64,000 nt of DNA from Seison nebaliae (taxonomy: Eukaryota), in NCBI GenBank assembly GCA_023231475.1, contig JALJEE010001852.1, forward strand, positions 1 to 64,000. Direction: 5' to 3'. The position numbers and the translations under genes are program-made. Numbering within the stretch: the stretch's first letter is position 1; every line of letters starts with the position of its first letter. Under the pieces are notes generated by a model that saw only the letters and a program-made list of their open reading frames with translations, had not been told where the DNA came from and searched no databases. This document shows, one piece after another, positions 1 through 62,785 of the stretch.

Positions 1-586
1 TCTTCTTCAATTCAATACCTCAATTCTTTCCACCCTCCCTTCCTGGAACCCTCTTCATTCGATTATAATGTTAACTCATATACATCTACAGTAACTCCGT
101 CATCTTCAAAAATTGAGAAATTATTGGAGGAAATTCTCCAAGCAAATATAAAAATGTTAAATTTGTTGGAGAATCGTGCGAATACGGAAACACAACAGAA
201 TAATAATGAGAATTCGAAGTTGGTATCTAATATCTTTATTGGTGTATTTCTTATATGGTGTATAATATGCTTTCCGATTGAGAATTCAAGAGTTGACTTC
301 GTTCTTTTTTTCGAAAGCAAGGTTGACTCGATTCTTTTTTCGTAAAAATTTTCCGTTCTGGAGCTAACTTTAGAGAAAAATAGGAAGCATATCTATTTTG
401 TCATGTCAACCAAATATAGCATTTTTAGCCGAAACTGTTATTTTCAGGTCAATTTATTCTCTATGTGAAACGATTATGATCATATATTAAACTTAAGGAG
501 AGAATTATTGGAATGTAATTGAAGGAAAAAAATTTAATCATAAAAAATTGAGATTTTCCAATTGATGATTGGAAGGTGCGAAGAAA

Positions 587-1799
587 TTAAATTTTCCGAA
601 ATCGAAAAGTTCGATAAAGAGAAACTAATTCCCAATCATCGGGAGAAATTGTAGCGGAATTTCTACCGTTCTGTTCCTCCATCGCTTTCATCCGACGAAG
701 TAGTCGCTTATGTCGTTGTTGATTCATGTAAACATGATCGATGGAGAGTTTACTTTTGATCAAGATCAATCCAAACGATTCTGCCACATCCACCAAAAAC
801 GGGAAATAACATAAATATTCGGGACAATTGACTAGATTGTTATGTAGACTAAACATAATTTCACTACCGATCAATGGTGGCGGTTCACCATTCCCACATT
901 TCCATTCGACGACTTTATTTTCTGAATTAATTTCAACCGGAAATTTCGTCTCGATATGAATAATTGGAGAAGTGTATGAAATCCTTCCGAATCGTTTTCC
1001 ATTTTCCATTGATATTATTGACTCAGTTATCGCCTTTCCTTTCCGTCCTAAAAGATTTCTTTAAGAAACAATTGAAACATTTTTGTAGATGAAGAAAATG
1101 AAAAAAAAACAAAATCATTTCAGCGTCAGCTGTTATTCCGAAAAAGATGCCATTCCTCTCTAATCTCATAGAAATATTCTTAAAAAATATGTGTAATTGT
1201 CTCTCACTTTCAAACACGTAATGAAGAACAAATTGACAGGAGATTAAATTAAATGTTTTTTCTCCACAAGTAGAAAGGAAATCATTCTAAAATTCTTTAT
1301 AAATTTCTTTAAGAATAATCAGTAAAACTTGACTCACATTACTCACATCGAAATGAAAGTTCTTGTGATTAATGTCTAATGATTCGACGCGAGAACGACA
1401 AATGTTGATTGAAGATTCACATAAATCTGTTCATTCATTATTCATATCATCAATCTAAGGGTGGAATTTAATGGAATCATTTTAAGGAAATGTACCTGAG
1501 CACGTGATTTCTTTGATAATCGAATGATTCTTGTATTTGAGTAAATCGCCTCCCTTCCCACAACCAACATCCAAAAGTCGGACGTTCTCGGAGTTAGCAT
1601 AAAACTCACATAGACTCTCATCTATAGAAATTTAAATGAAAATTACCTAATTTAATTTGAAGCACAAACTGATCAACGTGGCTTTGATCCAATTATTCAG
1701 ATTTCTCCCGTAGAACAATCGACTAACATTCCTCTCATCTAAATCATTCTCGGCAACCCGCGAATAACTTTCAATGATCCTCTCACTATTCTCCGACAT
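587..1799 (-). CDS. RNMT: mRNA cap guanine-N7 methyltransferase, 5 exons
   Basis: Spliced translation gives RNLNNWIKATLI, LDVGCGKGGDLLKY, LISCQFVLHYVFESE and CPEYL, all RNMT/Abd1 motifs. Introns: 1622-1669 (GTTTGT), 1427-1495 (GTACAT), one ending near 1287 with an ambiguous donor, and 1059-1110 (GTTTTT). Confidence 0.9.
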
Positions 1800-1979
1800 G
1801 TCCGGATGAATAGAACTAACATTTCAAATACGAAATTTCCTTCAAATTCCTTATCATTTAATTCGGAAAGAATTACCCTCTCAATATGAAGCTTCGCTGA
1901 GCCGCAATTGGTTGATATGTCTTATGAAATTAAATCGATTTATTTCCAATTCTAAATCGAAACTGAAAAATTCTTTAAA

Positions 1980-3600
1980 ATGTTTTTCCTTTTCATTTTT
2001 GCATTTCTCGTTGGCGCGTCCGGTTATTCCGTTTATCAAATTCGGAAAATTAGTAAATCATTCGAAACGAATAATCAGAAAGGCTTCAACAATCTTCGTC
2101 AGAATCAGATGAATAAATTAAAGCAGTTAGTGAATAATCGAAAACAATTCACTCGACCGACGATCAGGGAACAACCAGTCAATTCTGTGACAACTAAAGA
2201 TACGAATCGATTTGTTGCAGCTAAACAAATTGGCTTTGATGAGATTAAAGAATTGAACATCAAAAAACATTTTCCATTGAGTCAAAATCGTACAATGGAC
2301 AATCGGTTTACTAATGCCGCTTTCCCCAAATATGTTCCGTCTAATTCTGACTCGATTATATCGAAATCTCTCAATAAATTAGCTTCCGTCATTTTGGATC
2401 AACCGCCGAACATCAATCAAAATAATTCGGAAGATTTTGATGAGAATGTTTAGATTTTTTCTATTATGATTATTTATTATTATATATTAATTATTTTAAT
2501 TTATTTCATTATCATATTCAAATGTCATTTAGACGAAAGAAGGCTATTTCAGGAAATTAGCAGCCGTTGATCCATGGTATGCTCGAAAGAAATTCCAGGA
2601 ATTGATACAACATGATAATGAAAACTTTCCCAATTTAGACTTGGATTTCATCAAACGAACATTTAGTCAAATGGCGAATAATATACGTGGATATATTGAA
2701 CAAATAACAAATAATCATCCACCACAACAAGAAGATATGGAAGCAAGAGTGATTTCATATGAACCGGAAAAACTGAAAATTGTCAATGATAAATTAAATC
2801 TCATTTCTCCATTCAACAACAACAATAATCGTTATCAAAACACGATGATAGAGGATACGTGGACGAGTTATTTGGGAGAAATGAGAAAATGTCGAAGTCT
2901 CAATTTGGAGAATCGGAAAGAAGGAATGAAAAAGAAACGTTACCGTCGACGACGACGACAACGACCAACAATCACAATGAGTTTTCCCAATTATCATTTT
3001 AAAATGAAGAGTCCGGAGAAGAGAAGTTTAGTGGGGACGGAAGATGATGATGTTGATTCATTCGAAGTGTTGACAAGTGATTCTGATGGTGTGATCGGTC
3101 GAACTGATGGAATTACTTTTCGAACATTCAATCCGATTGTTACTAATCCACAAATCATTCCACCACCATACAATGACACACAATCATTCAAGCGGATTGT
3201 TTTTAATAATAATTTATTATCTTATCACTTGCCACCGAAACTCCCCAATGCTATTGGTCATCAGACGACAAAGAAGAAATGGAAGAAAATTAATGATGAT
3301 GATACAATCACAAGTTTTCCGATAGAAATTGAATTTAATGGAGACTCATCAAATCGGCAATCTGACAATCAATCGGAGAATACATCTCAATTCAAATATA
3401 TCGATAATGATACAGAACCATTATACAAATTCGTATATAATCAAATCACCGAGAGCGTTCAACAATTCAAAAGGAATTTTGATGAACAATTTAACCGTTG
3501 TGCGAAAAGTGACGAGAAATCATACAAACATCTCATCGCTCAACTACAACCGATTCCTCAATACAATCCAATTAATACTTCCAACTCACCTCGTTTATAA
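1980..3600 (+). CDS. Uncharacterised protein with N-terminal hydrophobic segment; 3' end uncertain (may continue to about 4108)
   Basis: ORFs 1980-2453 and 2602-3600 join in frame through an 85 nt intron at 2448-2532 (GTTTAG...TTTAG, phase 0). No family recognised. Confidence 0.55.
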
Positions 3601-4425
3601 GAGAAGTCAAATGTTCAAATCATTCACATTCTTCATTCAAATCATTCCTAACAATTTCGCAGTATTTCCAAAATTCGCATTTCATCCAATTACTCATACA
3701 ATATTATTACACTGATCCCATAAATACAAGTGAAGAAGCGACAAAAGAAGAACGTGTAGAAGATTTTTGTATTTTCCATTCGCATATATCACAATAATTA
3801 TGTGTTTCCCTTCGTTCACTTCAAATATCCTTTCAAGATTAAGAAGAAAATTGAGAGGAAAGAAAGCCAAGTCCGAAAGTCAACCTTTCCAGATCAGTTA
3901 TAAATGCCAATATATCAATAAAGAAGAGAGATTAGAAAGAAAACGATATGACGACAGTTCGTCGTCGAGTAAAATTTCGGTCGATTCAATAAATTCTCAA
4001 CTTGTTCGAGCTCGTCGTGCCATATACAATGATGATATGAGGTCGCTCAAATCTATCGTTATGTCGTCGGAACAAAGAACCAATTCCACAATAATGCTAA
4101 CGAACTAATGACATGAATAATGCACTCTCATATTTATTTTACTCTAATAAAATCGTTATATTCTTCTCTACTTTTCTTCGAATTGGATAAAGTTCTTCCC
4201 TTTTTTTTTCTTCTCAACAAAATGAATAAAATTATGTAATAAAAAGTATGATAATTAAAATGAGACATTTCTTTCCAAAATCATATCAGACGAGAATGTC
4301 AATACAGAAATGAATGAAAGAAAGAAATTCAATATATTTAATCATCTGCATTTTCTATAAATTTATTTTAAACTAATTTATTAAATTGAAGTAAAAGAAG
4401 AAAAAATAGTTTAATTTAATTAAAA

Positions 4426-4585
4426 TTGGGATTTGCGCGTACGCAATCCCGGTCTATCATAAATTATGCGCCCGAGTACTTCACTTGAAGCATCGCGAAC
4501 ATTACCTCATCGAAGTGCAATGAATGAAGCTCCGCTCGGGAGATTCTCATCCATGATCGAGAAGTCTTCGGCGCCAGGTTAGTAT
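4426..4585 (-). ncRNA. U1: U1 spliceosomal snRNA with variant 5' arm (AUACUAACCUGG)
   Basis: The reverse complement shows the 5' arm ATACTAACCTGG, stem-loop I with loop GATCATGGAT, the loop II U1A site ATTGCACTTC, the Sm site ATAATTTATG and terminal hairpin GGGATTGCGTACGCGCAAATCCC. Length is about 160 nt and the element order is that of U1. Confidence 0.95.
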
Positions 4586-6417
4586 GAATTGTTAGGGATT
4601 GGTCATCCGGTTTTATCAAATTTGTCCTGCTTAATGTTATAGATATTGGACGAGAAGAATTTTCCTTCGAATTGTGCGAGTTAAAGGAGAGAATGAATGA
4701 GAGAGAGATTTTGGAGAGTCGATAGAAATTGGAGAAAACTTCAAAATGTTAGCTGATTTTCATATTAACAAGATTGATAAGAATACGTAATAAATGGTGT
4801 TGGTAACTGGAATGAGTTTGATTCTTGTCAATGACATCATCAATTGTGGAGAGAAGAGGGATGGTTTCATTTTAATTGGAAGGGAACGAATATTTCTCGT
4901 AATTGAAGAGAGTTATTTTCTTCTTTCATGAATGCTTGTAATGTTAGGATAAGTTGCTCAATTCGATTCTGCATTTCAATTAATATGAATAATTGTCTAA
5001 TAGAAGTTTAATTTTCATAATTCATTTATTCATGTTGGAAGTGTTTGGTTGGGAAGATGATGATTGGAAGGAGTAAAAGAAAATTTGTTGATTCTCTCAC
5101 ATTTCATCGAGGAATGTTTGATTATCCGAAATCGACTAGAAATTGTATTTATTGAAGGTCATTCTCCACTTAATTATGATAGTCATCCTGGAAGGAAATG
5201 ACGGAGCTGATGAAATTTCATATTCCTTTTTCGTTTTTTTTTTCGTCACTGCCTCCCAGTTAACGAGTGAGGGAGGAGAGATGAATGGATGGATGGATGT
5301 GAAACGACTTGCATCTTATTATTACAAGCAATCGACGAATATGTAAAATTCACATGGAAATACATGTGAATGTCCCTTCTTGGAAAGGAAGTAGAAATCA
5401 AGGAAGAATTCCTGCAAAATATCATCGAATTGTTTAATGGAAATTGAATATGGAAATTACATATAGATTGCTTCTACTCTTTACATTCGGCGGGATGGTG
5501 TGCTGTTGCTCATTGTCACTTCATTCTCATTGCATATCCAACTGGTAAGACATGTGGTGATGGAAGCTGCAGGCGAGATAAGAAATATTATTCCTTTTTC
5601 CAAATCGAATATCTTTTCCTCTCCTCCCCAAAATAAGAAGTATGAACAACTTCTTATAAATACTCTCTCATCTACTACTCAATTTACATTTTTTTTATAG
5701 TTTTATCTCATTTCTAAACAATGAGTAAAAATGGAAAATTTATTTCTTATCTATTTCTTCTTTTGCTTCCGATAGATTTAACTTTCTCTTCTTTTGTCAC
5801 CTACCACCTCCACCAATTCTACCATCAACAAACTTTTTCGATCCCATCTGGAAATAATCGCTGGAAGAAGATTCGTCCTCGTCGCATTTGGTGGGCCGAA
5901 ATACCTTGATATTATCGTCTTTCTCTCTCTCTCTCTCTCAATACATTTGTCTACTCAGAACGGATATTTGACAATCAATAGAAGAAGGTTATACTTTTGC
6001 GCCTCATAAATGAACCGCCTAATGGATCGTTTTCATCTATTTCCATTTCTTATTCATCGTGGCGGCTATTCGGAGTTGTCTGTCAGTGCACATTCCTGCT
6101 GAATTTTCACATTACTTTCATGTAATATGAAGTAAGGATAATTCTCTATTGATTTGGGAAGGATAATTTATTTAAATTCTTATTCTCGATACTTTACAGG
6201 ATGATTGTTGAAAAAATATTTTTTTAATTTTTTTTCGATTTTTCTAAGTATTCCTTATTTGAGGTTTTCGAGATTTGTGGATATAGGGAAATGAGAGTTG
6301 CACCTTCGCTATTAGGAAGAAATGGGATTAGAAAAGAAATTTGATTTGTTGAAGATTAAGAATTAATCGAAAATTTTCTTCTCTTCTCTTTCTTTTATGT
6401 TCAATTTGGTATTCGCC

Positions 6418-6743: not shown

Positions 6744-7333
6744 TGACGTCATCAATATTTATTATTTGCGTCATATTCACTTGTATACGACGCTCTTATC
6801 TGATCTGGTCGATTTAAATTTCGTCACTTTAAATTGAAAATTAAATTTCTGTTTTCATCCTTCGTACTACATCATTTATATCGACAATCTTCGACCCGAT
6901 TCAATAACATTCTTCGGTGACGTTTACTTTGTCTCTCGTCGCTTATAAATCCCCATCCACCTCCACTACTTAACCATAACAACAACAACAACAACAATAA
7001 CAATAACATCGTCATCAAAAATCTATTATTCCGTTCGTCACCCAATTTTGTTATTGGGACGGAATTTATATATGTGTGATCGATTGATATCTGGAAACGG
7101 ATATTGATAAAACGAAACCGTTTAATTCGATACGCGAAAATATTTTGGGGGACGATTGTTTTGTGGGGAAATATCTGTTTGGTGTGGTGATATAAAATAA
7201 AACTGGGAAAATCAATTCGTCAACACGTTTTGTTAAACCTTCTTCAATATTTATATTAAATCAATCGATGACGTCGCCATGGCGTCATATGTAACTGCGT
7301 CATCATACCCTGATGGGACTGATGATGGCGTCA
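6744..7333 (+). promoter_or_regulatory. Cluster of CRE sites and a TATA-like box at the 5' end of the CREB-like gene
   Basis: Full TGACGTCA at 6744-6751, ten TGACG/CGTCA half-sites up to 7333, and TATAAAT at 6944-6950. Function is inferred. Confidence 0.45.
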
Positions 7334-8514
7334 TTCATCGCAATGATGGCGTTGTCAATGATGATGATGATAAAAATGAAACGAATGAAATCGAAATAAA
7401 TGATGATTCCTCGAATTATTTGTTGGGGGATCATGATGGAATGGGAATCATCGATAATTATGGAAATGATGATGCTCATAAAAATAATTTCCCGAATGAT
7501 GATAATGCTGATGATGATGTTTGCATGGAACGTTCACAAATTCATATGAATGATGAACAACATCCATCTTCATCATCATCATCATCTAATTCGACATCCT
7601 CCTCTGACTTATCATTGTCTTCGATCAATTCCACCATCATTCCATCCACCACAACCACAAATCCTATTTATACTGATTCATTTAAAACGACTGATTCTAA
7701 TGACACTCTATTCACCAATTGTAACACGACCACCTCAACTGCTATCTCTACTCCTCTCACAACCATTTCAACAAAAACGACGGTGATATCTTCTCCATTA
7801 CATAACATCTTGTCATCTGGTCGTCCAACGAACTTGACATTAAATTCACTTTTATTATCTCCTGTTAAATCGTTGACTGGTACGACAACGATAACTACGA
7901 CCATTATCTCTCCACTCGTCTCTACCACACTCATCACGTCGTCCATTCCATCCAAATTTGCCTTACTGGAACCGTTGTCCGTTCAAAATGTGCAGGGCAC
8001 ATCCGACAATTTTCTTCCTTCGAAATTTTCGACAAAACGACAACGACTTTCTCGTTATTTAAATCGGATCGATTATCAGAATTCAATTCTTCCCGAACAA
8101 TCTCTTGAGGATAATCAGAATCATCTGAATAATCATTTGACTGATTCAACTTTCGACTCACTCGTTGATCATTCCGAATATTCGAATCATAATTATCAAT
8201 CAGTCTCGTCGTCACTTTTACCATCAATTCCGATTGAACAATCTTCTCCATTGCCAGCATCGGTCGAGACATTTTGTACTTTACAATTACCTGGAATTAA
8301 GACATTGATCGATAATCAACATAACTCGTCCGTTAGCACCACCACCACAACTAACAACCATACACATCATCAGGAGAATTATAAAGAGGAAGAAGATCAT
8401 CAATTAATCGATCGATCTTTATTATTAGAGAACAATCAGGAATTAAGTAAATTTTTACCGATCAATAAACAGAATTTGGAATATCATCAACTTCAAAATC
8501 ATAATCATCACAAT

Positions 8515-8545
<31 letters not shown>

Positions 8546-9324
8546 ATATTGGTTTGGATAAAGTTGAAAGTGAATTAAATGTAGTTTCACATCCAACTCA
8601 TCAACAATCGGCTCATTCGAATTTACAACTTTATATTCCGAATGATGCACAAATTTTAGCATCGAGCCAATCACCATATCGGCAGAATCATCTTTCAAAT
8701 CAACCAAATTTCTATCTTCATAACGATACATTAATCGATTGTCCATCAATTGAAATTTTTCAAGCGGCGAACAATTCCCTCGATCACTATCCACAACAAC
8801 CACATCATCATCATCACCACCATCATCCCAATAATAATCATCATCAACAATTATTGACAGCTGATCAAGTTAATTCGATTAATTATCATAAAGAAGAATT
8901 GTCATTCTATTCAACATCACATCATCTTCATTCATCATTTGACGATTCAAGTGAATATCAATTGGATTCAAACGATCTTCATCATTCGTCTCAACAACAA
9001 CAATCACAAGATTCCATTAATCAAGATCAGCAACAACAACAAAATATTCAATCAACATCATTATCCAATAACAACAACAACAATAATAATAATAATAACA
9101 ACAATCATAATAACGATAATTCCAATTTTCCAATTCCGCCATTTTCTTTTTTGGATCGTAATAACAATCAATCATCATCATCCACATCAATATTTATGCC
9201 AATTGATGAAACAATGGAATCGAGATTCGTAGACATCGATGTCCAAGATAATACTAATAAAATTTTCTTAAACGAACATTCCCAAATTTGTACAACTACC
9301 ACCAACACCAATAATAATAACAAC

Positions 9325-9355
<31 letters not shown>

Positions 9356-9837
9356 TGATTAAGAACAATTTATCAAATGATAATAATTCTCTCCATCATA
9401 AATTATCACATTCTCTTTTCAACAACACGAATAACAACAGTTTATTCTATTCCTCTCCTCTCCAACTACCATTTCCATCTTCAGATCGTCGAATGAGTTT
9501 TCTGGCGAAGAACGAATCTCTCTCCAAAACAGACGTTGGCAAACAAAAAATATCGAAAAAGAATCGACTTCCTGTTATTTCTTCTGAGAATAACGAAACA
9601 TTAAAGAAACAAGAGAGATTGAGGAAGAATCGGTTAGCAATTCATTTATTTTTCCTTTCTTCTAAATTTTATCTTTTCAGAGAGGCCGCAAAAACTTGTC
9701 GTCAGAAGAAGAAGATTTATATTAAGACGTTGGAGGAACGTATTCGCGAATTGGAAGAAAAGAACAAACGTCTCACCGCCACAATTTTTGAGTTGCAGAA
9801 TCAATTGGGCAATCCCAACATGGATATAGTGAATTGA
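7279..9837 (+). CDS. CREB/ATF1-family bZIP transcription factor with long low-complexity N-terminus
   Basis: Removing the 48 nt intron at 9633-9680 (GTTAGC...TTCAG) restores RLRKNREAAKTCRQKKKIYIKTLEERIRELEEKNKRL, which matches the CREB basic region and leucine zipper. RRMSF is a possible PKA site. Confidence 0.85.
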
Positions 9838-13545: not shown

Positions 13546-16500
13546 TTATTCATTTCCCACATTGAGCTGCGCTCGCACTTTCTTCAACGTAGTCGAACAT
13601 CGAAGTTTCATTAATTTGGAAGAAGGAGAATCAGTTTCACCTAATCGTTTCACTGGAATTGTTCCTTCTTCTTCTACAAACCGAACGAGAGTTCCATTGA
13701 GGAATTTCTTACACGCTTCCAAATTGAGACAGTTCTGTTAAGAAAAGAAATATAATTAGAAAATAAAAATGAAATAAGAGAACTGTATAATTGGCGAGGA
13801 CGCATTGGATGAAGGAGAGACAAGTTTGAATTTCAGAGACATCATCAAGGATTCGTAGATGTTCCCAAGTGATGGAGATTAATTGATTAAATGTATCGTT
13901 CGAAATCAATTGTTGATAAGATGACGATTTGAAGAAGTTCTGTATTTTCGTTTGTTCTTCCAATTTGACGTTTTTGAAATCGGTGAAATTGAATGAATTA
14001 ATTCCATTCATCTTCAATTCATGAAGTGCAAGGAAAATGCGCGATAACGATGCAACCAATGTGTCATGATATAAGATATCGAAATCATTCATCTTCATTT
14101 CGATAATGGAACTATTACCTTTCAATTCATTGATACATAATTCCATAAATGAATGGAACGACGATTCCTTCCCTTCCAATGATAAAATACTCAAATAATG
14201 AAAAGGCGAAGCAGAGAAAAGAGTGGAGATAGCATAAATGAAATTATTTCTTATCTCATCCGAATAACTCGTGAATTTCGATATTTCAACCAACGATTGA
14301 ACGAGATGAAATAGACGTGAATAAATTAGATGGAAATAAGATAAAAAATTCTTCTGTTGTGTCACATAGAAAGAGAGAACATTCGGTTTGGAGACACTTC
14401 CATCATTCGGTGCTAAATCTTGAATGAGCGTGCAATTGATAAGCATGGATAAGTAGCCGAGTGTATGACTCAAATCTTCGTCCGTATTTTCAATCGGTTT
14501 CGTCGACAATTTGGTGGTTTTGGTAGTTGGGATGAATTGCTTCTCGAAATGTGTAAGGACAATATCATAAATTCGAAATAATAAAACTCGACGTAAATCA
14601 TTCCAGGAATCAAATTCGTCTTTCGGTTGTATTTGATGTGGTTGTGGACGATTATTATTAATTGATGATTTATTCTTCTTTCTAACGTTTTGCGTATTTT
14701 GAATTCGGTTTTTCTTTCGCTGCGAATTCGTCAACTTCTTATTCTTCTGTTGTAATTCATGATAATTTTGCAACGGTTTCAATTCCTCCATTTTTCCATA
14801 GAACTCATGACGATGGAAATGGGGTGAGAGTGTGGCATAATAAAGATAATCGATAATCGATGGGAATAATTCGAGAGTTGATTGAATGATCTTTGAATTC
14901 TTTGCAGTTTTTTGTGAAGATGATGATTTCTTTTGAATGATCTTCTCACAATAATCCACCAATTTGACGAGAGTATTATGAGTAATGATGAGAGTTGAAC
15001 CTTTCTCATTGAATAATTGAAATTTATTTTTATTGTAAAATGACAATAATTTCGTCTTCTTCTCCAACATATCGAATTCATGAATTTGATGAATGTTCGA
15101 TACTTCGTCCATAACATTTATGATGGCTCTCAATGTTTCCGAATAGACGTCATCGTCCATCATTTGTTCACCGAATAATTTCTTCTCATCTTCCAACATA
15201 TCATTCTCCATATCACTCTCGTCAATAATATCGAGTAATCGATGGACGAAACCGTCGATGGAAATAAATCTTTTCTCATCATCAACGTCATCGATATCAT
15301 CCACATCATCTCCATTCTCATCCATCTTCTCATCATTCTTCTTCGATAATTCACTCAAACTGTTATACAATTTAACTGAATTGACCAATTTGTTTTCGAG
15401 AGATCTTTCTTCCGTTTTTCCATCAAAACGGAGAAATTCGATAAGTTTGATCAGACTGAAATTGGAGAATTTAATATCTCGAAATAATCGTCGATCATCA
15501 TCCACATATTTAATAATGATCAATGATAAATGGTAATCGATTGATGTGGCGATAGATGTGAGAGATGTTAGAGAAGTAGAAATAACATCATCCACCGGAT
15601 AATCGAGAAAATCGTGCAACGTCAACATGAGTTTTTGAATGAATAATGCTTTCGTATAGAGATGGAATAAATTCGATTTCTCATCATTTTCATTCGACCA
15701 TTCTCTCGGAATTTTTATGGTGATGTTGAGACGAGCGAGAGTAAAATCATTCAATTTGAATGGAAGAACGTCGTTATTGAAGAGAGATATAGCTGGTTGC
15801 ATTTGAACATCATTCCTGAATAACGACGCAGTAATTGAAGAGAATAAGATGTTGAGTGATCTCATACATGACGATTTGAGATCGATGGTACTATTAAGAA
15901 TATCACCACCTTCTAATTCGTCGTCACTATCATCATCGATCTCACTTTCGTCATCATCCTCGTTAACACTCTCATCAATCGATTCATCTCCTTTTATCAT
16001 CTGATTCTCCAACTTCTCCAACATACTCTCGTCCATTCCCATATCTTCATTCGTCGTTAACGATCGAACAATGTAATGAAGAAGTGTAAAGTACATTGGA
16101 TGCGGACAGAATGTCCCAACACTACTAAGCGCTGATGAGAGGAATGTATATCTGTTAATTATTTACAAATTGTTATTGTTATTGTTATTGTTTATATGGT
16201 AATTTTATTAGGTATTCCAGATTCCATTAGAAACAGGTTGATATGTTTCCATACCATCCATTGGATTTCATTCCATAAAAATGAAAGAAAGAAAAGAAAG
16301 AAAGAAAGATCATTAAATTTTGAACAAATAAATCATTTATCAAGAGGAGAAGCCTCTTCCTATCTCTCCTCCTCATCATCATCATCATCCTTCATTCCAA
16401 CCAACTAATCAACGAATCTTCACTCAATTTCTAGTCGACTAACTCTCTGTCTGAAGATCGATTGGATTTAATGAGGAATTGATGGTCATTTTCAGAGGAA

Positions 16501-25297: not shown

Positions 25298-27000
25298 ATG
25301 GTTAGTTGTCATCTATTCTATTGAATAATCATTCTATCTAATAATAATAATAATAATTCCATTTGATGATTAGGCAAAAAAAGATAAAAAGAAGAAAGGA
25401 AAAGGAGGTGGGAATCCGGGAATGGTGGATGGAATTCCTACTGCCGAAATGACGAAAGAACAATTGGAGGAGCATATTATTCGATTGCAGGAAGAGATTA
25501 ATCGTGAGAGAGAAGAACGAAATTATTTCCAATTGGAACGTGATAAGATCAATACTTTCTGGGAAATAACAAAACGACAATTAGAGGAGAAGAAAGTTGA
25601 ATTGAGAAATAAAGATAGAGAGATGGAAGATGTTGAGGAGCGTCACCAAGTCGAAATTAAAGTGTATAAACAGAAAGTCAAACATCTGTTGTATGAGCAT
25701 CAAAATAATTTGGCTGAAGTTAAAATGCAGAATTTGGTGGAGTTTAAAGAGAAGGAGAATTCTGATTTCCAGAACGAAGTGAACGACAGAAAAGCAATTC
25801 GTGATTTGAAACAGAAGTTGCATGAAGATCGAATATCGAATGAAGAAGTGATGAAATCGATGAAATTGAAACAACAAGAAGAACAAACTGCGCTAAGAAG
25901 TCGATTCGAACAACAAGTGAGTGAAATCGAAGAGAAATTCAATATGAAAATGAAAAATTTGCGAGAAGATCTCGAACTGCGAAGAAAGACTGATATTCAT
26001 GAGGTGGAGGAGAGGAAGAACCAACAGATTAATACATTGTTGAAGAATCATGAGAAAGCTTTCTCCGATATCAAGAATTATTATAATGATATTACTCTCA
26101 ACAATCTCGCTCTCATCAATACGTTGAAAGTGGGAACTTATTTTTATAATATTATAAACATTCTAATTTCGCTTTATAGGAGCAAGTGGAAGAGATGAAG
26201 AAGAAGGAGGAACGTCTCGAGAAGCAAATGCATGAAACTCAAATGGAGAATAAGAGATTAGTTGACCCTCTCAATAAGGCGAAAGATGAATTGACAGACA
26301 TGAGGAAGAAAGTAACTTGTTATGAGAAGGACAAACAATTACTTGCTTCAACACGAAATCGATTGAAATTGTTGACGAAAGAACATTCGAATCTTCAATG
26401 GGAATTAGAAGTTCTCACACAACGATATGATGCTGTTCGTTTTTTATTTTTCTTTCCAAAAAAAACAAGTTATTTTGTGTCAGTTGGAGAAAGAACGAGA
26501 TGCTTATTATAAGAATTTCACGGAAGCAATTCATGACGTTCAACAGAAAGCTGGATTGAAGAATTTGTTATTAGAAAAGAAATTGACAACAATCGGAGAA
26601 ATGTTGGAGAAGCGCAATGCTCAATTCAATGAAGTTTCTATTCAATTAATTCACTTTCAACTTATTCTCTTCTCAGGTTGTTGTCACAGCGAATCTTGAT
26701 CCAACAGCAATTGGTGTAGTCGGATCGAAATTAGACGAAGTGGTCGAAAAGAAGAATAATATCATCAAAGAACTTCAATTAGAATTGGCCAGAATTTGCA
26801 AAGTTTTCTCATCATTATTTTTATTATTTCTATTCTTTCTAATTCTTCTTCAATTTTAGTCATATAATGATCTTTTAAGAAGTTTCGATGCGAAGTTACA
26901 ACAAATGGGATTATCCTCTTCCGAACATGGATTCAAACCAATGGCAACAACAGTAATGGAAGGAAATCGTGTGGGAACCGCTCCAATGCCAATACAATAA
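25298..27000 (+). CDS. GAS8: Growth arrest-specific 8 / dynein regulatory complex subunit 4, 6 exons
   Basis: [38 protein letters not shown] and [16 protein letters not shown]. Introns: 25301-25373, 26130-26179, 26435-26483, 26634-26676, 26803-26859. Confidence 0.97.
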
Positions 27001-28843: not shown

Positions 28844-30133
<1,290 letters not shown>

Positions 30134-32106: not shown

Positions 32107-33364
32107 ATGTTGATTAAAGAATAGTTACAATTTTCTTCTCCTTAAGAAATTTCATGAAATTTTTAATATTCTTTTATTTTACATCTTTCCACCCTTGTCC
32201 AGTCGCGTCATACTTCCATTGACTTTGGAAGAGTATCAGATCGGACAATTGTACTGCACGGCGGAAGCTAGTCGTGAAAATACTGGTGGTGGCGAAGGCA
32301 TTGTTGTGGAAAAGAATGAACCGTTTACTGATAAAAAGGATTTATTCGAAGGATATACTTCTGGTCAATATACTTACAAAATCTATAAAATGGAAAGGTT
32401 TCCTTCTTATCATACACATATACACACACATATATATATATATATATACACACACATACACACACACAAACACATTTTCATCTCTCGCTCTATTTAGTAA
32501 AGTTCCAGCATTTGTCAAAGTCTTCATTTCACCAGGACGTCTAGATATACATGAGGAAGCATGGAATGCCTATCCCTATTGTCGTACTGTGTTGAAAGTT
32601 CTTCTATTCTCCTCCTCTTATTCTCACTTCAACATCTCCTTCAAAAGAATCCCGGTTTCATGAAAGATGATTTCGAATTAAAAATTGAAACTCTTCACGT
32701 CCAAGATGGAGGCCTATTAGAAAACGTTCAATTTTCTCCCTTCTATTGCTCTTCATCTCCATTTGTAGGCACATCAATTGTCACCAGTTCTCTTAAAGAA
32801 GCGAGACGTGTCTACTATCGATATCTCAAGAGATCATATTCCCAAACATGTTCACTTCATTTTCCCATTTCCTCCAATTATATTCATTCGATATTGAAGG
32901 ATTATAAGGCGGACGAAGATCCGGGAAAATTCCAATCGACAGTTGTTAATCGAGGACCTCTCGGTCCCAATTGGATTGATGAATATCGTGCAATTGCTGG
33001 TACTTCAGCTGCAGAAGGCAAACCGTTAATGTGCGCATATAAACTGGTAACAGTCGAATTCAAAATGTTCGGATTTCAGAATCGCGTCGAGAAATATGTC
33101 ATTAATGTTTAAACGAAATTTTCTTTTTCTTCCTCCAATTGTCGTTGAAAAAAGGCTGAACAACGTCTCTTTACCACGTTCCATCGGAAAGTTTTCTGCA
33201 CCATTGACAAATGGCATGGGAAGACAATACAAGACATTAGAGAATTAGAAAATGAGACGAAGGCAGCACTGGAAACAGTTCGATTTGTATTCTCTCTTTC
33301 AAATTCACTTCTATCTTTTCAGACGTTGGATAAAGGAGAAAAGCGTGGAATGATCGTGGAATAA
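32107..33364 (+). CDS. Class I phosphatidylinositol transfer protein (PITPNA/B-like), 8 exons
   Basis: [50 protein letters not shown] and FHRKVFC. Seven introns: 32124-32202, 32398-32497, 32598-32647, 32726-32768, 32850-32899, 33107-33154, 33278-33322. Confidence 0.96.
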
Positions 33365-34015: not shown

Positions 34016-34352
34016 CTAGTGCCAACTCAACGTCTGACAGAGTGAAAGATCTCGTTCATTTTTTGATAATTGTTGTAATTGGATATCATTAATGAATTCC
34101 TCAGATAAATCGTGATGTTGTTGATGATTGTGATGGAATGGAGATTGTGTTTGTGGAACGTGATGATTCGTCTTCTTTTTCGTTTTCTTCGTTTTACGAC
34201 GTTTTAATCGTTGAATTTCCGATGATGTTCCTGCAACTGTTGTTGTTGTTGTTGTTGATGATAATGTGGTTGCTGTAGTCGATCGATTATGATGTTGCTT
34301 CAATTTTTTTACTCTCTTCTCTGCTCCACTTTTTATGATTCTTATTGGTAAC

Positions 34353-34383
<31 letters not shown>

Positions 34384-34707
34384 GCTGTATTGGAAATATT
34401 ATTTCATGTCTTTCTTTACAATGTTGGAGAGGAGGAGGAGGTGGATGATGATGATAAATAGAAGATTGTTGTTGTTGATTATCGTTGCATGTGACGGAAG
34501 ACATAGATGTCGTTGAGAGGATGGATAATGGCATTTTTTGAAGAATTACATAATCACTTGATGATAATGCTCCTGTGTCATTGACAGTTAAAACATTTCC
34601 ATTAGATGTCGATAGAATTATATTCGTCAATTGATTTGGATAATTTTCACTAATCTGATTCGGATTATGTGAGACTAACAACGATTGTCCAACTGCATCA
34701 TCTCCAC

Positions 34708-34741
<34 letters not shown>

Positions 34742-37399
34742 GTTATTGTTGTTATTGAATGGATAATTCATGTTACATTCATATAAACGATTATCATTTT
34801 CACAATCATCATTTCCACCGTTTTCATGATACAATTTATGTTGATACGAATCGTCTTTCGACACATTCGTCGGAGAAGTGAGTAATGAATTAAAATGATA
34901 ATATCGACAATCTGACATTGATCGGAGAGGTTGTTTTCTTTCCGTTTGCAAATCGGTTTCATTCAAATATAAACCGAATTTCTCCAGACTCTGTTCTACT
35001 TCTTTCGTAACACTTGCTGCCGCTACATAAGCGATCTGTTTCATTCCATGAACGAAGAAATCATTAAGACATGATTGAATCACTGGTGCCACACAATTAT
35101 CCATTAAATTATTCGATTGCTTCTCATTCATCATACTATTATCATACAAATCGATATTATCATCTTCATTTTCACTTTCATAAATCGTCGGACGATTTTG
35201 CAAATATTTCTTATTCGTGTTATAAGATATTTCTTGATCGACGTTTCCTCGACGATAATGATGATTATTCTTCAAACTCTTCTGGATATCACTCAAATGA
35301 GGCACATTCGACGAGATTGAATACCGTTCTTCTTTCTGTCCTTTTCCATCATCTTTCTCTCCCAATTGTTGAAATGGGAATGAACATTTCGTTTTCTCCA
35401 AATGTTCACTCGTCATTCTCGAGTTACTTATCAATCTTTCTTTCCGTTTCTTTTTCATAGCAGTCGAATGCATCAATTCATTAATAACAGCATTCTGACA
35501 ATAAATCGTTCGACTATCGACTGGTAATTCGTTACAATAATTCTTCACCGTCGTTACGTCATTTGGAAGAAAATAATGATTTGGTGATTTATCACAATTG
35601 GATTTGAATTCAACATTTTCTTCCGATTTCTGTCTCTTAAAATTATTCGTCATGTCATTCCGATATTCTGATATTCTTCTATTTTCCGTCATTGATGATG
35701 GTATTTGATTTTTCATATTTAATTGAAAATAATCATCATCGGAATGTATTTTATTATTTTGCGAGACTGTTGTTATTGTTGTTGTTGTGGTGGTGGTAGG
35801 AGGAGGTGTCACATGAGTGGAAGAATGATTTGAATATTTTAAGTTTTTATTACAATTATTCATATTCCCTTGTAACATGATACCACTGTCTTTGTTACTG
35901 CTGAGTGGACTGTTAGAGATTTGTTTCTCCGAATGTTTATTAATATTGAAGGAGCATCGATCGAATTTTAAGGATGATTCGGAACATAATGATGATGATG
36001 ACGATGAAGAAGTATTCGTTGAAGATGTTAAGGACATGGAAGGATTTCTCAGCCATTTCCTTTTCGGTAAAATATTCTCTTCATCTATTCGTTGAATTTG
36101 GAAGAAGGGTTGATTGGAATTAATTAATCGATCCTGATTCCGATTCAGACTATTAATACTATCTGTTACATTAATTTGTTGTAACTTTATCAATTTATAA
36201 GGAGAAAGATGATGTAGTGGTGGTTTATCTTCACCAACAAATGTCGAAACTAAATTATCAGAATCGGTTGATGGAAATAAATTACTTTTTAATTGAATCG
36301 ATGACTTCTCAATTTTCTTCCGATTATGATTATTGTTGTTATTGTTGTTGTTGTTGTTGTGATTATTCTTCTTTAAACATTTCGTTTCTACATGAATATT
36401 CGTTCGGATATTACTAGTCGACAAATCTTTCTTATTTCTTCTCAAATCTTTTGTACTCATTAATGGATCTGTTGTTTGTTGTTGACTCAATTGACCATTA
36501 TCTACTATGGAAATCGTGGAATCGGATATATTAGACATTTTATCTTTTTTACCCGAAACTTGCTCACCATCAGATAATGATTCCGTATAACTGCTAGCTA
36601 TCGATGTGATGAATGGAGAGATGAATTGTTGTGATGGTTTCTTCGATCGATTAATCGGACTCAAATAATTCCGTTTCACAAAATGTTCATAAGTTCTTGA
36701 TGCTTTCTCCTTCCGCCGAATGAGAATTCTAGAAAACATTCAAATTATTATAATCTTCTCAATCATTATGAAATTACTAAACCGGATGATATGACTCAAA
36801 TAAGCGATCGATAAGAAAACCATCAACACCAATAAGATGATGGCACCTGTGATAAATATACTGCGGAGAAATTCTTGTTGTTCCATTTTCTTCATTAATT
36901 TCGTGGGAATTTCATTCATCGAATTCATTGTAATCATTGTGGAATTAGTATCGCTTTTTATTTCCTGTGAATTATTCATTGTTGTCCTGTCTACCATCAT
37001 TGTAGTGAAATCATCAGTAGTTGATAGAGAAGAAATTCCTGAATAAGTTTTTGTCAAATTTGAATTGAGGTATTTGGTTCCAGCACGATTGTTTGTTTGC
37101 TGCAAATGAATGGATGAGAGGACTTCGTTCAAATCGCTAATACGATGAGGAATGACTCGTTGTAAATGTCGAAGATTCGACGTATAATTATTCACTTCTG
37201 GTACAATATTATTAAGTAGACGACGAATTGATTTGTAGTTAGGGAGATTTTTCGTTTGATTAAAATAATTAATTTTTATATTGTTGTTGTTGTTATTTGG
37301 ATGATTGTTATCGTGATGATTTGTCAGATAATAATTAATTGGATAATTAAATGAATTTGTTGAATTTTCATCGACATTCTCTTTCATCAGCAGAATCAT
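34016..37399 (-). CDS. Uncharacterised single-pass membrane protein with long low-complexity tail
   Basis: Two same-frame ORFs are joined by a 54 nt intron at 36729-36782 (GTTTAG...CTAG) that contains the intervening stop. A TM segment IFITGAIILLVLMVFLSIAYL is followed by basic residues. Confidence 0.65.
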
Positions 37400-38812
37400 T
37401 GTTCAGTCATGTTTTAACAGATACCTTCCATAAATGTGGATTGTTCAGTGAGGAGAATAATGGAGAAGAAGAAACATTTCAAATTTCCTGTAGACTTGAC
37501 CCGAATTAGTATTATAAATAGTTTGAATAAATAGACAACTGATCGCCAAAATAATGATAAGTCCAAATTCATCCGTTCAATTCTCTCTCATCTAATTCCC
37601 TTTCATATTCCACTACTCACTCTGATTCTATTTCACAAAGAAGAACAATTACAAGAAGTAGAATTATCATTCACAACAATTCCAATATGAAATTTCCCTT
37701 AATTATTTTAACTAAATCTCCAACTAAAGGAAAGTTTTGTTGATAGAACGGAGAATTGACCGATTCACCATTCACACTCATCACACGAAAGAAATTCTTC
37801 TATTTCTTCAATTATTCCACTTACCGGAAGAATGTCTTTCCGACCATTATGAATCATGAAATATTCAATTAATTATATCATCAATCAATGGACAAATGAG
37901 TGACAATATGATAAAAAAGATGTGGATGATTACAAGAGAAGATAATGGAAATTCTCCAACTTTCTCTACTCATTTCATTCTCTCCATCGTCATCATTGAC
38001 ATGTGATGGAAGAAGATATGGAGATATACTGTCCGTTAAATGTGTGGAAGGGGCGGATATCTTCACATTTCTAATCACATATTGACCTGATTATCTTACC
38101 GTTTTCTTACTTCTTCTTCTCACCATCAACTTCACCATTCCCAAATGGTCGAGAGAAAGGAAAATAGTGGAAATTTCAAATAATCTCATTCATCGATTAA
38201 TCGATTTATTGAATAATTAGAATGATTCTCCCAGAACACGATTTACAGAAACTTTTAATCTTATAAATTATGTATTTCATTCTGTTCACTTCAATTCAAC
38301 GAATTCTCTATTTCTATTTCATCTGATACTATTAGTCTGATTAATCAAGAATTGATTAATTCATTCTGATCAATAACAAATTAGTTAGAGGAGACGGAGA
38401 GTAACGAATGAATAATCATTATTTGGGATGAAACGGTCGATAGTCACCGTGAGATTAGAAGTAGATGTTCATTTTTCATAAAATCTCGAACGAACTTTTT
38501 CATTTTCTCAATTTCTTTAGTAAATTTATGTTAGTTCCTTCTTCCCACCAAACCTGTACTTAGATACGATGATCATATCCACCGGAAAACTAGTAGCATC
38601 TTCAACAAACAATGAACGAAAGAAAATTGAGACATAACGTAAATAAAAGAAGAACCAGGAAAACATGTGGACGGTTAAATCGGAACGGAAACGCAATCGT
38701 CAACTATCTTCCTTCGTTCCAATCTCGCTCTCTTCATCGGAAGCAGTCAACACATATTTATTTTATGTTGACAATTTCCATGTTTATGAATCATCTCTCC
38801 TGAGTCTAGGTG

Positions 38813-39140
38813 ATTTGGTAGAAGGGACTATTTGGTAGACCGACAATTTGATAAACGGAGATTTGGTATATCGACCATTTGGTAGACGGGACTATTTGGT
38901 AAACCGACCATTTGGTAGACTGTATTAGGTAGAACCGTATTTTTAATGAGCATAATCCTTTTGAATGATCCAAAATTTTTGGAGCAATTTAAATGTGAAA
39001 TAAGAAAATATCTACATGTATTTCCCATACGGAGTCTACCAAATGGTCGGTCTACCAAATCTCCGTCTACCAAATTGTCAGTCTACCAAATTGTCGGTCT
39101 ACCAAATAGTCCCGTCTACCAAATGGTTCGTCTACCAAAT
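38813..39140. mobile_element. Foldback-like non-autonomous element: two inverted arrays of a 15-17 nt tandem unit
   Basis: Eight ATTTGGTAGAC-type units (38813-38940) and seven inverted GTCTACCAAAT units (39027-39140) flank a spacer of about 85 nt. The repeat is certain; the transposon identity is inferred. Confidence 0.6.
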
Positions 39141-47077: not shown

Positions 47078-50000
47078 TTATTGAGTCTGATATTTAGTGG
47101 TGGTTGGTGGGAGTGCATCACCTTCCATATCATTCACACAATGTTCGTCATCTTCACCGTTTTCAGGATTTGGAAGAATGTCTTCTTCCGGTATACTCTT
47201 ATCCAAATACGCGAAATATTTAAGATTAATGATAGAAAGTGCAGTGAATGATGACGGTATAGTGGCGGAGGAGGTGATTGACGAGGCGTTCGATGACGAA
47301 GTGTGGAAAGATTTTGGTTGATGTAATTGAAAGAGAAGTTGAATAATTTCGTAATTCACTTTTAAATTTTTCACGTCGATCTTCTCCGACAGATTCATCG
47401 CATCTAATAACGAGAGTTTGGACTGATGAAATGATCCGGTCATTTCGATGGTAATTGAAGTATTACCTTTCTCCTCACTCTTCACCAATTCGTAGAGTCG
47501 CCAAGTCTGTAAAAGAATGGCATAAACGGCGATAACGCAATTGATGAGTGAATTCGATTTGGATGATTGATTATGAATTAATTTATGAATATTAATTGAA
47601 TGATGATTCTTCTCATTCACTAATCGTTTTAATAAATTAATGATATAACATTCCGTTATATCGATCATTTCGATAATGGAAGAATTGTCTAATTGGTCGA
47701 AATTGATAAATGTTTCGATCATTTCGTTCAATTCGTTCAACTCATAACTGAATGTACATTCGAATTTGATATTGGATGATGATGATGAGAGAAATGAAAA
47801 ATTGAAATGAAGAAGTGGAAATGAACTAACTCATCCGACAACTGGTCGATATCGACGAGATATGATGGAAGTTGCTGTTGGATCAGACAATCGATACAGG
47901 AACAATTGACATTCGTTTGATACTTCGATTCAACATTTTCCGATGATGTCGACGATGTATTTGTAGTTGGTGATGATATGGACGGTTGAATATGATGATA
48001 ACGATGATGATGGTGATGATGATGGTTTGAACTATAAAATTTCTTTTTTAAAAATAAACTTTTCAAATAATTGTTGGCGCGAATAATATTCTTGTGACGT
48101 GACGATGTTGATTGTGATCGTTTGATGAGTTTAGATGAGGGAGATAATCGATCGTTAGAATATGCATCGAATGATGGTGAGAAATCCGTTCCGTTCAAAG
48201 TGAGTGTGAGAAGAATGAATCGATTATTCCATACGTAATAATTGACAGTGTTCAATGACATACGATCATCAATACGAATAGATTGATTGAATATCATCGT
48301 TCTCAATCGATTCCTCATTACGTCGTCATTATCGATGAGATATGATTGTCGATACATTGATCGTTTGATGGAATTGCGATGTGATCGTCGAAAAAATGAA
48401 GCAAAGGATTGTTTCGTCGAAAATTCATTAGAATTTTTCCCACTTCCATTCAATGACGAATGATCATCAATGGAATGATCATTGTCGAAAGTTGGCGAAT
48501 CAACAATTAATTCCATTTCCTGAATTCTCACCAGATCACTATTGATATGATGAATGATCCTCTCAACCGCCATATGAGAAATGATGGAGAGATCATGTTG
48601 TTGTTGCTGCTCTACTACATATTGTTGTTGACCGTAATTCGATTGAGTTTGTGAATGAAATGGTTCGATTTGAAATTGTTGTCTCGATTGTGTCGTATTT
48701 AATGGTTCGGTGGAGAGAATATCAGACATTTTCATCCATTCTGGTAAAATTTGCATGACATTCTGAAAATGTAAAAGAATATTATAATAAATTGATTTAT
48801 ATGAAAGAATACATTCATTCAATGTCTCCCAATCATTATCTAAAATATCGATCAATTCAATCATCAACAAATCATCTGATTTCACTCGAATATATGACGG
48901 ATATCCTAATTGTTGTTGTTGTTGTTTCGTCGTATGAATGAGGAAGAATTCCATTTGACTCTCACTCAATTTCACATTAGATGAATAATCGTCGAGGAGA
49001 TTAGTCGTATAATTATTTGAATTTTGAATAAGATATAATGGAAATTGAAGAACGAGAGAAAATAAATTATTGGGAATTAAATTCTGTTTGAGAAGATCGA
49101 GAGCTTTCGCTTTTGTTGGATGAAGACGATTCGTTCGATATAATTGCTCTTTCTCATTCGTTATCATTAGAAGACATTGATGTAATAGACGTGCCAAATG
49201 GAGAATGAATCGATAATATATGTCATAGAACAAATTAGCGATAATAAATCGTCCATAATAATTAATGGAATTATTAAAAATTGATTGTATCATCAATCGT
49301 CCACGACTAATCGAATCCATGTTCACTATACAAGAATTCATTTGACGTTCATTCATTCTCACCATCAGATAACCAAGACTTATATCTAATTGGCACCAAT
49401 TCGTGGATAAATAACTCATGACATTCCATTCACAATTTGACACATTCGAATCGCCAATAATTATTTTCAAATTTCTTTTACTTTTCTCGAATAAGTTGAG
49501 AAGATAATCGATCCAATTATCTCCCCACAAATCATCAGTCAATGTCTTATTCATCAATTCTTCTTTCTCATCATTCTCCTTCGACAATTCAATGATATTC
49601 TCTTTGATTGTCAATCGTTTCTCATTCTCATCATCAATCAACAAATTCTCACTTAACGATCGACCATTCTTTCCCAAATTTAAGAGGAATTCAATTTTAC
49701 ATCCATCCAATTCCGTCAATAGATAATAGAAAATCAATTTAACGAATCGTTTCAATTCCTCCAAATTCTCCATCGTCATCTTCTCTCCTTTCAACATCAT
49801 GGAAGCGAAATCATCATCTAATCGAAACAATTGACTAATGCAATTACAATTGAAGAGATCCCACATCTCAATTTGGAAATGGGAATTCAAAGTGATGACA
49901 TATCGACGATTAGGTAACTGATAATAATTGAGAATGGAACAACCGACTCCTGACGAGAAGATAACGGAATATGGAAATATTTCATGATTCATCTTCTCAC

Positions 50001-51426
50001 ATTTTTCCATTTTCTCACTGGGAATTAACGATAATTTTTTTAAAAATTTATCATAAAATTCAATTTTCTCTTCTTTATCATTTTCGTTCGTTATGAAACA
50101 TTTGGGTAAATATCCATTGAATCCTGATGATGATTTCGATGCGACTAATAAAACTTGATTATTCTTCTTTAATTCCATTCCTTTTAAATCATAATATGAC
50201 GTTCTTATACATTCATCACATTCAATTTCATTAATCTCATCTGTCAATTTCACACATAATTCCAGATCGATAATTGAGGAATGTTCTTGTAAAATCGATT
50301 CATTCATCGAATTATGAAACGAAAATAATTGAACAGATCCATCACTTTCTCCCACATAACATGATTTACCTTCATCTAACATAATTAATGATTTCAATCC
50401 ACATATCTCTGAGAGTCGATGTTGAGAGAGAATGTCCATTTTCCTCATGTCCCATTGCGTCAGGAAACCATCAGCGGAGATGGTGGTTAGAAGTTGATGA
50501 TTTTTCTTTAACGAATGAATTGTTCTTGTTTCTTGGAATAATTCTTTGATTAAATTCGATTGTCGAATATCCCATACGAGAATCTTTCCGTCGATATGTC
50601 CCGAATAAACGGTACCACTCTCCTCCTCCGTCTCTAACGAATAAGAACTTTCGATATTTGTCGATTGATTGAGAATGACAGAACATAAAGGAAATCGATT
50701 GAATTTCTTCAAAAATCGATTCGTCTCCAATTTCTCTAATTGAACTTTACCATTCATATCAAATTTACTCTGATCTAACACATTCAATAAATTATCTAAT
50801 CGATATCGATTAGTCGATTTCGATCGATTTGGTAATAAAATCGTTTCCGTCAACATTCCATCCAAATGAGTCACTCTTATCGTACTATCCATCGATGATG
50901 ATACAAATAAATTCTTTTGTCTCATACATTTTATCTCATTCACTTGATCATGATGTTGAGTGAACGTATCAGCAAGTAAATAATTTCCATCATTCTCATC
51001 AAATTTCCAGATTTTCACCGTTTCATCCGAAGATCCGGACAATACTAAAATCAAAGTATTTTATTTGTTAAGAAGAAAAAAAAATTTAACAGAAATCATT
51101 CCAATAATCGATGGTATTAATCCAAGAGGAATGATCAATTAATTTATCTAGAAATTTTATTGATAATTTCCCACAAATTTTACATTTCTTTTCAAAGAAT
51201 TATCATTCAAATTTTAATAAACAATCACAAACTTGTAATCTCCATCGGCCTATAGTAGCGTCACGTGACGCCGAAAATATTTCTGAATGATTCTCATTCC
51301 AGAGAAGATTGTTAATGGAATTGTTATGAATTGAGTGTGATAGAAATCGATTAGTCAAAGGCACAGAAATCTTTCGAGGTCAAAATTAAAAGAAAGATGA
51401 AAAAGAAAAGAAACAGTGGAAGACAT
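47078..51426 (-). CDS. WD40-repeat protein, WDR48/UAF1-like, 5 exons
   Basis: Spliced N-terminus NSINNLLW..IFSASRDATIGRW, HSSWINTI, LLSGSSDETVKIW and HHDQV, plus NRRYVIT and NWCQLDISLGYLMV, follows WDR48 order. Introns: 51371-51414, 51188-51232, 51045-51090, 47748-47830. Confidence 0.75.
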
Positions 51427-61200: not shown

Positions 61201-62785
61201 TTTTCTTGTTGTTCTGTCCAATGCATGATCTGTTGAGCTGCACTGTCATAAACGACAAGATGGAGAAGATCTCGAAGTGAATGCATTTTTCGATTCCATA
61301 AGATGGAAAGATCGTCTTCTATCTTCTTTAATTTGAGACATTCGTCATCAATCGATTGAGTCCATTTCGATGACAACAATTTCCTCTCACTTAAATTCAA
61401 TGTGGTAATATTTAATGTGACACGTTCAATATATCGAAGACATGTGTCACTTAATCGTTTGATGAAATGAAATTTATTTCGAATTGTTTCCTTCTCTTCT
61501 TTCAATTCATCTAAATATTCATTCAATAATTTCTCTTTTTCTACACTCTCATTATCCTGATGATTCTGATTATCAGATAATCGATTCAATAACGATTTCT
61601 TCGCCTCCTCATTAATATGATGATACCAATCGAAATGATTTTGATTCATCGATTCATTAATCTTCTGGAAACATTTCAATTCAATCTCTTCCAACGACAA
61701 ATAGAATTGTGTAGTCGCTTCAAACATTTTATAACGATCATCAATGAGATGATAAATAATCTGCCATTGACGTCCCAATTCCACCAACTCCTCCTCCAAC
61801 AAACACTTCTCACGTCGCATCTGTTCATGTTGACAAGTGAAATCTGTTTTGAGATGTTGTTGTTGTTGACAATAGGCGAAATAGAGATGATTTAATCGCG
61901 TCTGCATCGAATGGAGAAGATGTTTCAATCGTTTCAATTCATTTAATAATGGTAAATTATCGTTGAAGAATCGTCGCGATTCATCAATAGTTCGTGGAAA
62001 TTGATATACTAATTGATTCTTCGTTGTTAATAACCATTGATCAATCGTCACTTTCTCATTCATCATTTGCTCTACACAAATACTATATTCCAAATGAAGA
62101 CGATGTGATCGAGTTAATCGATTTAAACGTTCCTCTTCTTTCTGAAGACGATGAATCACTTCTTTTACATATATATGTGCTGCCATATCCTTCCACGATA
62201 ACCGTCGTGATTGATAATGAAATTTCGATTGTAAATCTTGATTAGATATTTGATAATTCTGTTGTTGTTGTTGTTGTTGTTGTTGTTGTCGATGGAAAAT
62301 GGGAATTTTTAATAAATTATTCGAATCTTTTTTCATGTGTGTGTAAAGCCAATTGTAAGCGGATAATGAGATTGGTAGACGGATGGATGAACGAATAATT
62401 GTCAATCGTTCAAGATCAATCGATTGAATCATTGATGAATTCAATAGTTGACCATCTTTCAATAAGTTGAGTGGATCATTTAACAGAAGGAAATTTAATG
62501 AAATTTTCGATCGAAACGAATTCCACAACGACATGTCGTCATTGATGGTGAACAAATATTTATCAATCGGGGACGACAACATCGAATCATTATTCATCGA
62601 ATGATGGTGAGGAGATGGTTCTGATGGTTTTTGATTTGAGATATTCGATAATAATTGATTATCTATCGTCTTCATCGTCGTCGTCACATTCTCCGTCATC
62701 GAACTATTCGTTGTAATTGTTAAAATATAATTCTTTCCATTTGGTGGCAACGAATCATTTGTTGTTGTTGTTGTTGTTGTTGTTG

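Follow-up and report, generated by a model that had tools for sequence, protein, structure and literature searches.

In Entamoeba, the U1 snRNA carries the 5' arm ACAAAC, which matches the donor GUUUGU; Mastigamoeba balamuthi has the arm ACGUAC, Physarum polycephalum carries a standard U1 beside an ACAUAC form, and yeast, Giardia, Thecamonas and Micromonas retain the canonical arm despite atypical donors (available part of bioRxiv 10.1101/2022.06.08.495308). The animal Fritillaria borealis has two U1 versions with identical canonical 5' ends; most Fritillaria introns break the GT/AG rule and the arm is still canonical, the adaptation of splicing being ascribed to U2AF paralogues and m6A (available part of PMC13326754).

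Here we describe a U1 gene with A at nucleotide 6 (A6), together with the intron donors around it, in a 64,000-nt stretch of DNA (the window) from Seison nebaliae, a rotifer (Seisonacea) with a compact genome of ~46 Mb (available part of PMC8351084). As far as the accessible portions of these sources go, Entamoeba shares with Seison an A at nucleotide 6 that pairs with a +3 U, in an arm altered to fit an atypical donor. It differs in changing nucleotides 5 and 6 where Seison changes nucleotide 6 only, in having one U1 candidate per species where Seison has a second U1, and in combining few introns with a nearly universal donor, whereas Seison is an animal with ~1.1 introns per kb of coding sequence and degenerate donors. 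The amoebozoans Mastigamoeba and Physarum, like Seison, show a single arm change that matches the preferred donor, although at nucleotide 5 (+4) rather than nucleotide 6 (+3). Fritillaria, also an animal, resembles Seison in its two U1 versions and in splice sites that have shifted strongly, but its U1 5' ends remain canonical, unlike that of the Seison A6 U1. Neither a rotifer U1 nor a +3 U is mentioned in the available parts of PMC10125929, PMC11347168, PMC3464624 and PMC2396436; a term search of the accessible text of PMC12256650 returned no occurrence of "intron", "splic" or "snRNA", and the term "snRNA" is absent from the main text of the Seison genome paper (PMC8351084). Co-evolution of U1 and donors in an animal was not found in the literature searched, which consisted of main texts without supplements and included few subscription papers. 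A U1 that follows its donors is already known in amoebozoans, and it is the animal setting that is apparently new.

The A6 U1 gene and its relatives

Nucleotides 8, 7 and 6 of U1 face intron positions +1, +2 and +3, and U at nucleotide 6 is near-universal; the placing of nucleotide 6 opposite +3, from which the first-pass annotation of this DNA reasoned, is established knowledge. A cmscan search of the 64 kb returned a sole Rfam match, a U1 gene at 4585-4426 on the minus strand that covers the entire RF00003 model (positions 1-166 of 166; 108 bits against a gathering threshold of 69.5, E 2.8e-26). The gene starts at its 5' end with AUACUAACCUGG, the plus strand reading CCAGGTTAGTAT at 4574-4585, and in the Rfam alignment its nucleotide 6, window position 4580, is A against consensus U, as had been read from the letters alone. 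With A at this nucleotide, the gene does not have the canonical arm ACUUAC. The predicted fold is a U1 cloverleaf in which the 5' arm is free, the Sm site single-stranded and the terminal stem formed (z -1.76 relative to shuffles, 9 of 200 of which fold equally well). The remainder of the gene had been described as intact, which is right for the U1A loop, which is perfect, for the Sm site and for the terminal stem, and too generous for loop I, the U1-70K site: this 10-nt loop retains GAUCA with two conserved positions altered (G for A at nucleotide 35 and U for G at nucleotide 37, relative to the Rfam consensus). The stems, the Sm site and the 3' end show no decay in either the cmscan alignment or the fold. 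The gene comprises the following features:

4426..4585, minus strand: U1 snRNA gene, 160 nt (full RF00003 match, fold, identical in runs X1 and X2)
4575..4585, minus strand: 5' splice-site recognition arm, nucleotides 1-11 (alignment; unpaired in the fold)
4580..4580, minus strand: nucleotide 6, A where the consensus has U, opposite intron +3 (Rfam alignment; no other letter in contigs)
4549..4558, minus strand: loop I (U1-70K site), 10 nt, two departures from the Rfam consensus (Rfam alignment)
4512..4521, minus strand: loop II (U1A site), 10 nt, beginning AUUGCAC, with a C-G closing pair (alignment, fold)
4458..4465, minus strand: Sm site, unpaired (alignment, fold)
4428..4450, minus strand: terminal stem-loop IV (alignment, fold)

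Five public runs from two samples and two studies contain 0.98-0.99 of the words of window 1-6300, and in the contigs of X1 (sample S1, study P1) and X2 (S2, P2) the stretch 4250-4800 is unbroken, with 0 other letters. X1 or X2 may itself be the source of the window DNA, but the samples are nonetheless two; because they agree, an assembly error at 4580, the danger that the first-pass annotation had raised, is very unlikely. No contig matching the U1 stretch was found in X6 and X7 (organism B). A PITP exon in the window is 100% identical to the Seison nebaliae NCBI protein SNEBB_008401 (P0135), and the whole of that protein maps letter for letter on 32107-33364. The published Seison samples held two co-sampled strains, at depths 8-14-fold apart, plus host or bacterial DNA (available part of PMC8351084), a mixture that could in principle supply a wrong base at 4580 or a U1 from the host or a co-sampled organism. 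Such an artefact deserves almost no credence, since the U1 and its flanks lie identically and in one piece in the contigs of two samples from two studies, and since the same window carries a gene that matches a Seison protein at 100%.

Both runs also hold a second U1-like contig, of 15,018 letters in X1 and 10,508 in X2, with the second U1 in X1 record 4 (14045-14095) and X2 record 9 (924-974). This contig aligns with the first 49 nt of the window U1, with 10 differences in 51 letters, and diverges afterwards; read by eye, its loose end has an AUUGCAC loop closed by a five-pair stem, an intact U1A hairpin of its own in the register of the window U1. The contigs of the window and of the second U1 have depths of 17.2 and 16.9 in X1 and of 8.95 and 8.96 in X2. 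This equality, depth being a rough guide, points to the second, divergent U1 being part of the same genome and not of a rarer co-sampled strain. X1 and X2 contain no further U1-like contigs at 80% likeness, a level at which more divergent copies would be missed. As only two U1-like genes are present at this likeness, each in a long unbroken contig, the A6 U1 is no stray member of some large array of near-identical genes. The second U1 may be A6 too, or canonical, and it could do part of the splicing work.

Variant U1 copies are known in vertebrate multi-copy U1 families, and a metagenome scan for U1 with a nucleotide other than U at position 6 gave 13 loci. Five of these hold an A6 U1 gene that scores above the Rfam threshold, namely that of L006 (85 bits) and four in the pairs L001/L009 and L002/L012:

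L001:1080-1240, L009:343-503, L002:2888-3048 and L012:347-507: high-scoring A6 U1 genes (138-141 bits)

The two pairs hold two slightly different A6 forms with similar upstream sequence, which suggests that two related genomes of another eukaryote have both retained A6. In L006 a canonical U1 (121 bits) and a U2 accompany the A6 U1 in tandem; by eye, L006:1-2934 is a ~2.9-kb unit with repeated ends that contains U2, the A6 U1, the canonical U1 and an apparent third, divergent U1 across the ends. All five genes, like that of Seison, have A at nucleotide 6 in an otherwise complete U1, and L006 differs from Seison in that its A6 copy shares a tandem array with a canonical U1 and scores lower than the latter. 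A further five loci (L003, L004, L007, L008, L011) hold U1-like copies with C6 that score below the Rfam threshold, and in L003, L004 and L011 a truncated copy runs straight into another U1-like start. L005, L010 and L013 were rejected as chance matches. No intron-containing genes were recognised in the short contigs of the A6 loci. An A6 U1 is not peculiar to Seison and can exist as a side copy; Seison stands out because its A6 matches the donors.

Introns and donor code of the window

We mapped 40 introns in 16 of the 22 genes of the window, a density of ~1.1 per kb of coding sequence (40 in 36.5 kb). Twelve are fixed by protein evidence (7 in PITP and 5 in GAS8), and 28 rest on reading-frame continuity, in several cases also on Pfam continuity, and none on transcripts. 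A gene finder without a +3 term gave 29 raw introns, 24 of them GTT. Six were removed (11919, 12001, 23604, 23816, 28773 and 19554; four of the six not GTT): two gave way to one intron that restores a LITAF domain, two lay in an unsupported prediction, and two broke frames that continue to a natural stop. Another 17, added by hand or alignment, brought the total to 40. The median intron is 50 nt long, and the intron bodies contain 4.7% G and 48.5% U. Four of these genes are:

32107..33364, plus strand: PITP gene, 7 introns, all GUU (exact mapping of P0135)
32124, 32398, 32598, 32726, 32850, 33107 and 33278, plus strand: PITP donors (one GT-AG solution per junction)
25298..27000, plus strand: GAS8/DRC4 gene, 5 introns, 4 GUU and 1 GUG (homologue alignment, Pfam positions)
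25301, 26130, 26435, 26634 and 26803, plus strand: GAS8/DRC4 donors
587..1799, minus strand: mRNA cap methyltransferase gene, 4 introns, 3 GUU and 1 GUA (PF03291 continuity)
28844..30121, minus strand: rRNA adenine dimethylase gene, 4 introns, all GUU (PF00398 continuity across two junctions)

Five of the seven PITP junctions are also best-scoring against 6 homologues, as are four GAS8 junctions against 10 homologues, the fifth GAS8 junction, at 26130, being set by adjacent Pfam positions, 32 then 33. The sole GUA donor of the window is that at 1495, in the cap methyltransferase gene. Short conserved genes such as PITP and GAS8 retain many introns, unlike the long proteins with homopolymer tracts (N, Q, T, H) at 7279-9837, 34016-37399, 47078-51426 and 58242-63956, which have few or none. 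At 38810-39140, a degenerate inverted cluster of short repeats containing GTAGAC/GTCTAC was seen by eye between genes. A multi-exon gene with acidic tracts at 25118-24157 (minus strand) suggested a pICln-like snRNP assembly factor, an identity that neither Pfam nor the Atlas supported.

Most animals have a purine at +3, and +5 G and -1 G each occur in roughly three quarters of their donors. In the window, +3 is U in 37 of 40 donors (A 1, C 1, G 1), including 11 of the 12 fixed by protein evidence. The dominance of +3 U reported by the first-pass annotation stands out both from the 48.5% U of the intron bodies (p 3e-9) and from decoys: of 129 non-donor GTs nearby, 46 have U at +3 (Fisher p 7e-11). 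Position +3 holds 1.44 bits of information, compared with 0.20 at +4, -0.05 at +5, 0.14 at +6 and 0.11 at -1, where the counts are +4 A 12/40, +5 G 9/40, +6 U 16/40 and -1 G 8/40. Since the remainder of the donor is nearly free, the code is "GUU" rather than "GUUAGU": complementarity of the arm to GUUAGU, as proposed at first, is correct at +3, but exact GUUAGU occurs in only 3 of 40 donors. Unlike Entamoeba, the window shows no strict donor consensus with which the arm pairs throughout. The dominant donor base departs from GURAGU, and the A6 change is Watson-Crick complementary to it.

Among 28 short introns, 20 have no GTT other than the donor in the interval 39-65 nt ahead of the acceptor. 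The GUU donor of intron 1328-1287 in the cap methyltransferase gene is preceded, at distances of 9 and 18 nt, by two in-frame GTGAGT sites; judged by Pfam spacing, these sites (1328-1345, minus strand) appear, weakly, to be skipped for the GUU donor. Acceptors read AAG in 8 of the 40 introns. No branch-point motif is enriched (17 of 40 introns against 17.2 in shuffles), GTTAGT is not enriched window-wide (26 observed, 23.6 expected), and donor strength shows no correlation with the length of the intron (rho -0.11, p 0.49). An apparent avoidance of cryptic donors in exons, where GTT and GTA are depleted at codon junctions, was discarded, as a control showed general depletion of GT, GC, CT and TA; a comparison of strong sites between sense and antisense suffered from small numbers or from confounding repeats and was of no use as evidence. 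Since +5 G and -1 G are largely lost, pairing with both U1 and the U6 ACAGAGA should be weakened.

Fit of the A6 arm and rival explanations

Relative to a canonical comparison arm taken from metagenome locus L006, the A6 arm pairs better in 36 of the 40 donors, equally in 2 and worse in 2, with a mean duplex energy of -1.9 against -0.6 kcal/mol; even with A6, half of the donors (20/40) pair weaker than -1 kcal/mol. When the 40 donors are separated from 129 decoy GTs by the identity of nucleotide 6, A gives an AUC of 0.78 and U, C and G give 0.50, 0.48 and 0.57, a comparison that largely repeats the +3 U bias. The canonical arm is without discriminating power on the window donors. Among GUU sites, +4 A is found in 12 of 37 donors and 4 of 46 decoys (p 0.01), and -1 G in 6 of 37 and 1 of 46 (p 0.04), these being two of five positions tested and the p values uncorrected; they are the bases that U1 nucleotides 5 and 9 would pair with. 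The single arm change hits the only informative donor position past GU, which is arithmetically one of the 33 possible changes in an 11-nt arm. The idea of a compensatory rewiring, put forward in the first-pass annotation, gains from the better A6 fit at +3, while compensatory U1 arms as a kind are already known.

We consider it probable that the A6 U1 is a working U1 co-adapted to GUU intron starts. The A6 RNA would be made and assembled into a U1 snRNP, in which nucleotides 6-8 (AAC) would form three Watson-Crick pairs with GUU, one more than the two open to canonical U1, and additional pairs at +4 and -1 would be used where present. As the predicted duplex is weak, the remaining recognition would have to come from proteins (U1C/Luc7 type) and from cross-intron definition of these short introns. 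The second U1 may be A6 as well, or may serve the rare GUA/GUG donors. Either the donors or U1 may have changed first. Entamoeba and Mastigamoeba, as far as the available part of the source describes them, provide a precedent for U1 arms that follow donors.

The A6 gene might instead be a minor or silent variant, with a canonical second U1 doing the work and proteins allowing GUU donors to be tolerated. A second U1 gene does occur at equal depth in both runs, loop I deviates at two bases, and L006 has its A6 copy beside a canonical one; in the partly available sources, yeast and Giardia manage with a canonical U1 although their donors have a pyrimidine at +4, Physarum carries a standard and a modified U1 (bioRxiv 10.1101/2022.06.08.495308), and Fritillaria keeps a canonical arm despite extreme donors (PMC13326754). 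We nevertheless find this unlikely, as A6 falls exactly opposite the dominant donor base, the stems, U1A loop and Sm site are all kept with no difference between samples, and the canonical arm gives no separation of donors from decoys (AUC 0.50). Alternatively, the A6 U1 could be expressed while its pairing is near-dispensable, +3 U arising from U-rich introns and proteins, and A6 having drifted or been permitted. The 48.5% U of the intron bodies, the low mean duplex energy with half of the donors weaker than -1 kcal/mol, and the loss of most +5 G and -1 G would all agree with this. Yet +3 U lies far above intron-body U and decoys while +4 and +6 are at background, which argues that +3 is read specifically; the remainder of the arm is conserved, and residual +4 A and -1 G enrichment persists among GUU donors, so that we regard dispensable pairing as improbable. 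A more elaborate possibility, which we hold tentatively, is that the Seison donor code collapsed to GUU and that two single-copy, long-diverged U1s share the work, the A6 form serving GUU donors and the second GUA/GUG donors. If this two-U1 reading is true, the disappearance of +5 G and -1 G would imply that U6/U5 pairing or U1C/Luc7-type proteins have changed correspondingly.

Meaning for the splice code of an animal

To our knowledge, animals are regarded as having an invariant U1 arm. A changed arm with matching donors in an animal would mean that a metazoan genome containing thousands of introns can undergo a rewriting of its core splice code. The donors of Seison, in contrast to those of Entamoeba, are weaker rather than stricter, with almost nothing specified past GUU, and the scarcity of +5 G and -1 G is a second surprise beside the A6 U1. 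Introns in the Seison lineage may be misplaced by gene finders that were trained on GTRAG donors. Two questions become testable, namely how much donor information a spliceosome needs when introns are ~50 nt long, and whether U1 leads donors or follows them; the genomes publicly available for rotifers and acanthocephalans could place the switch in time.
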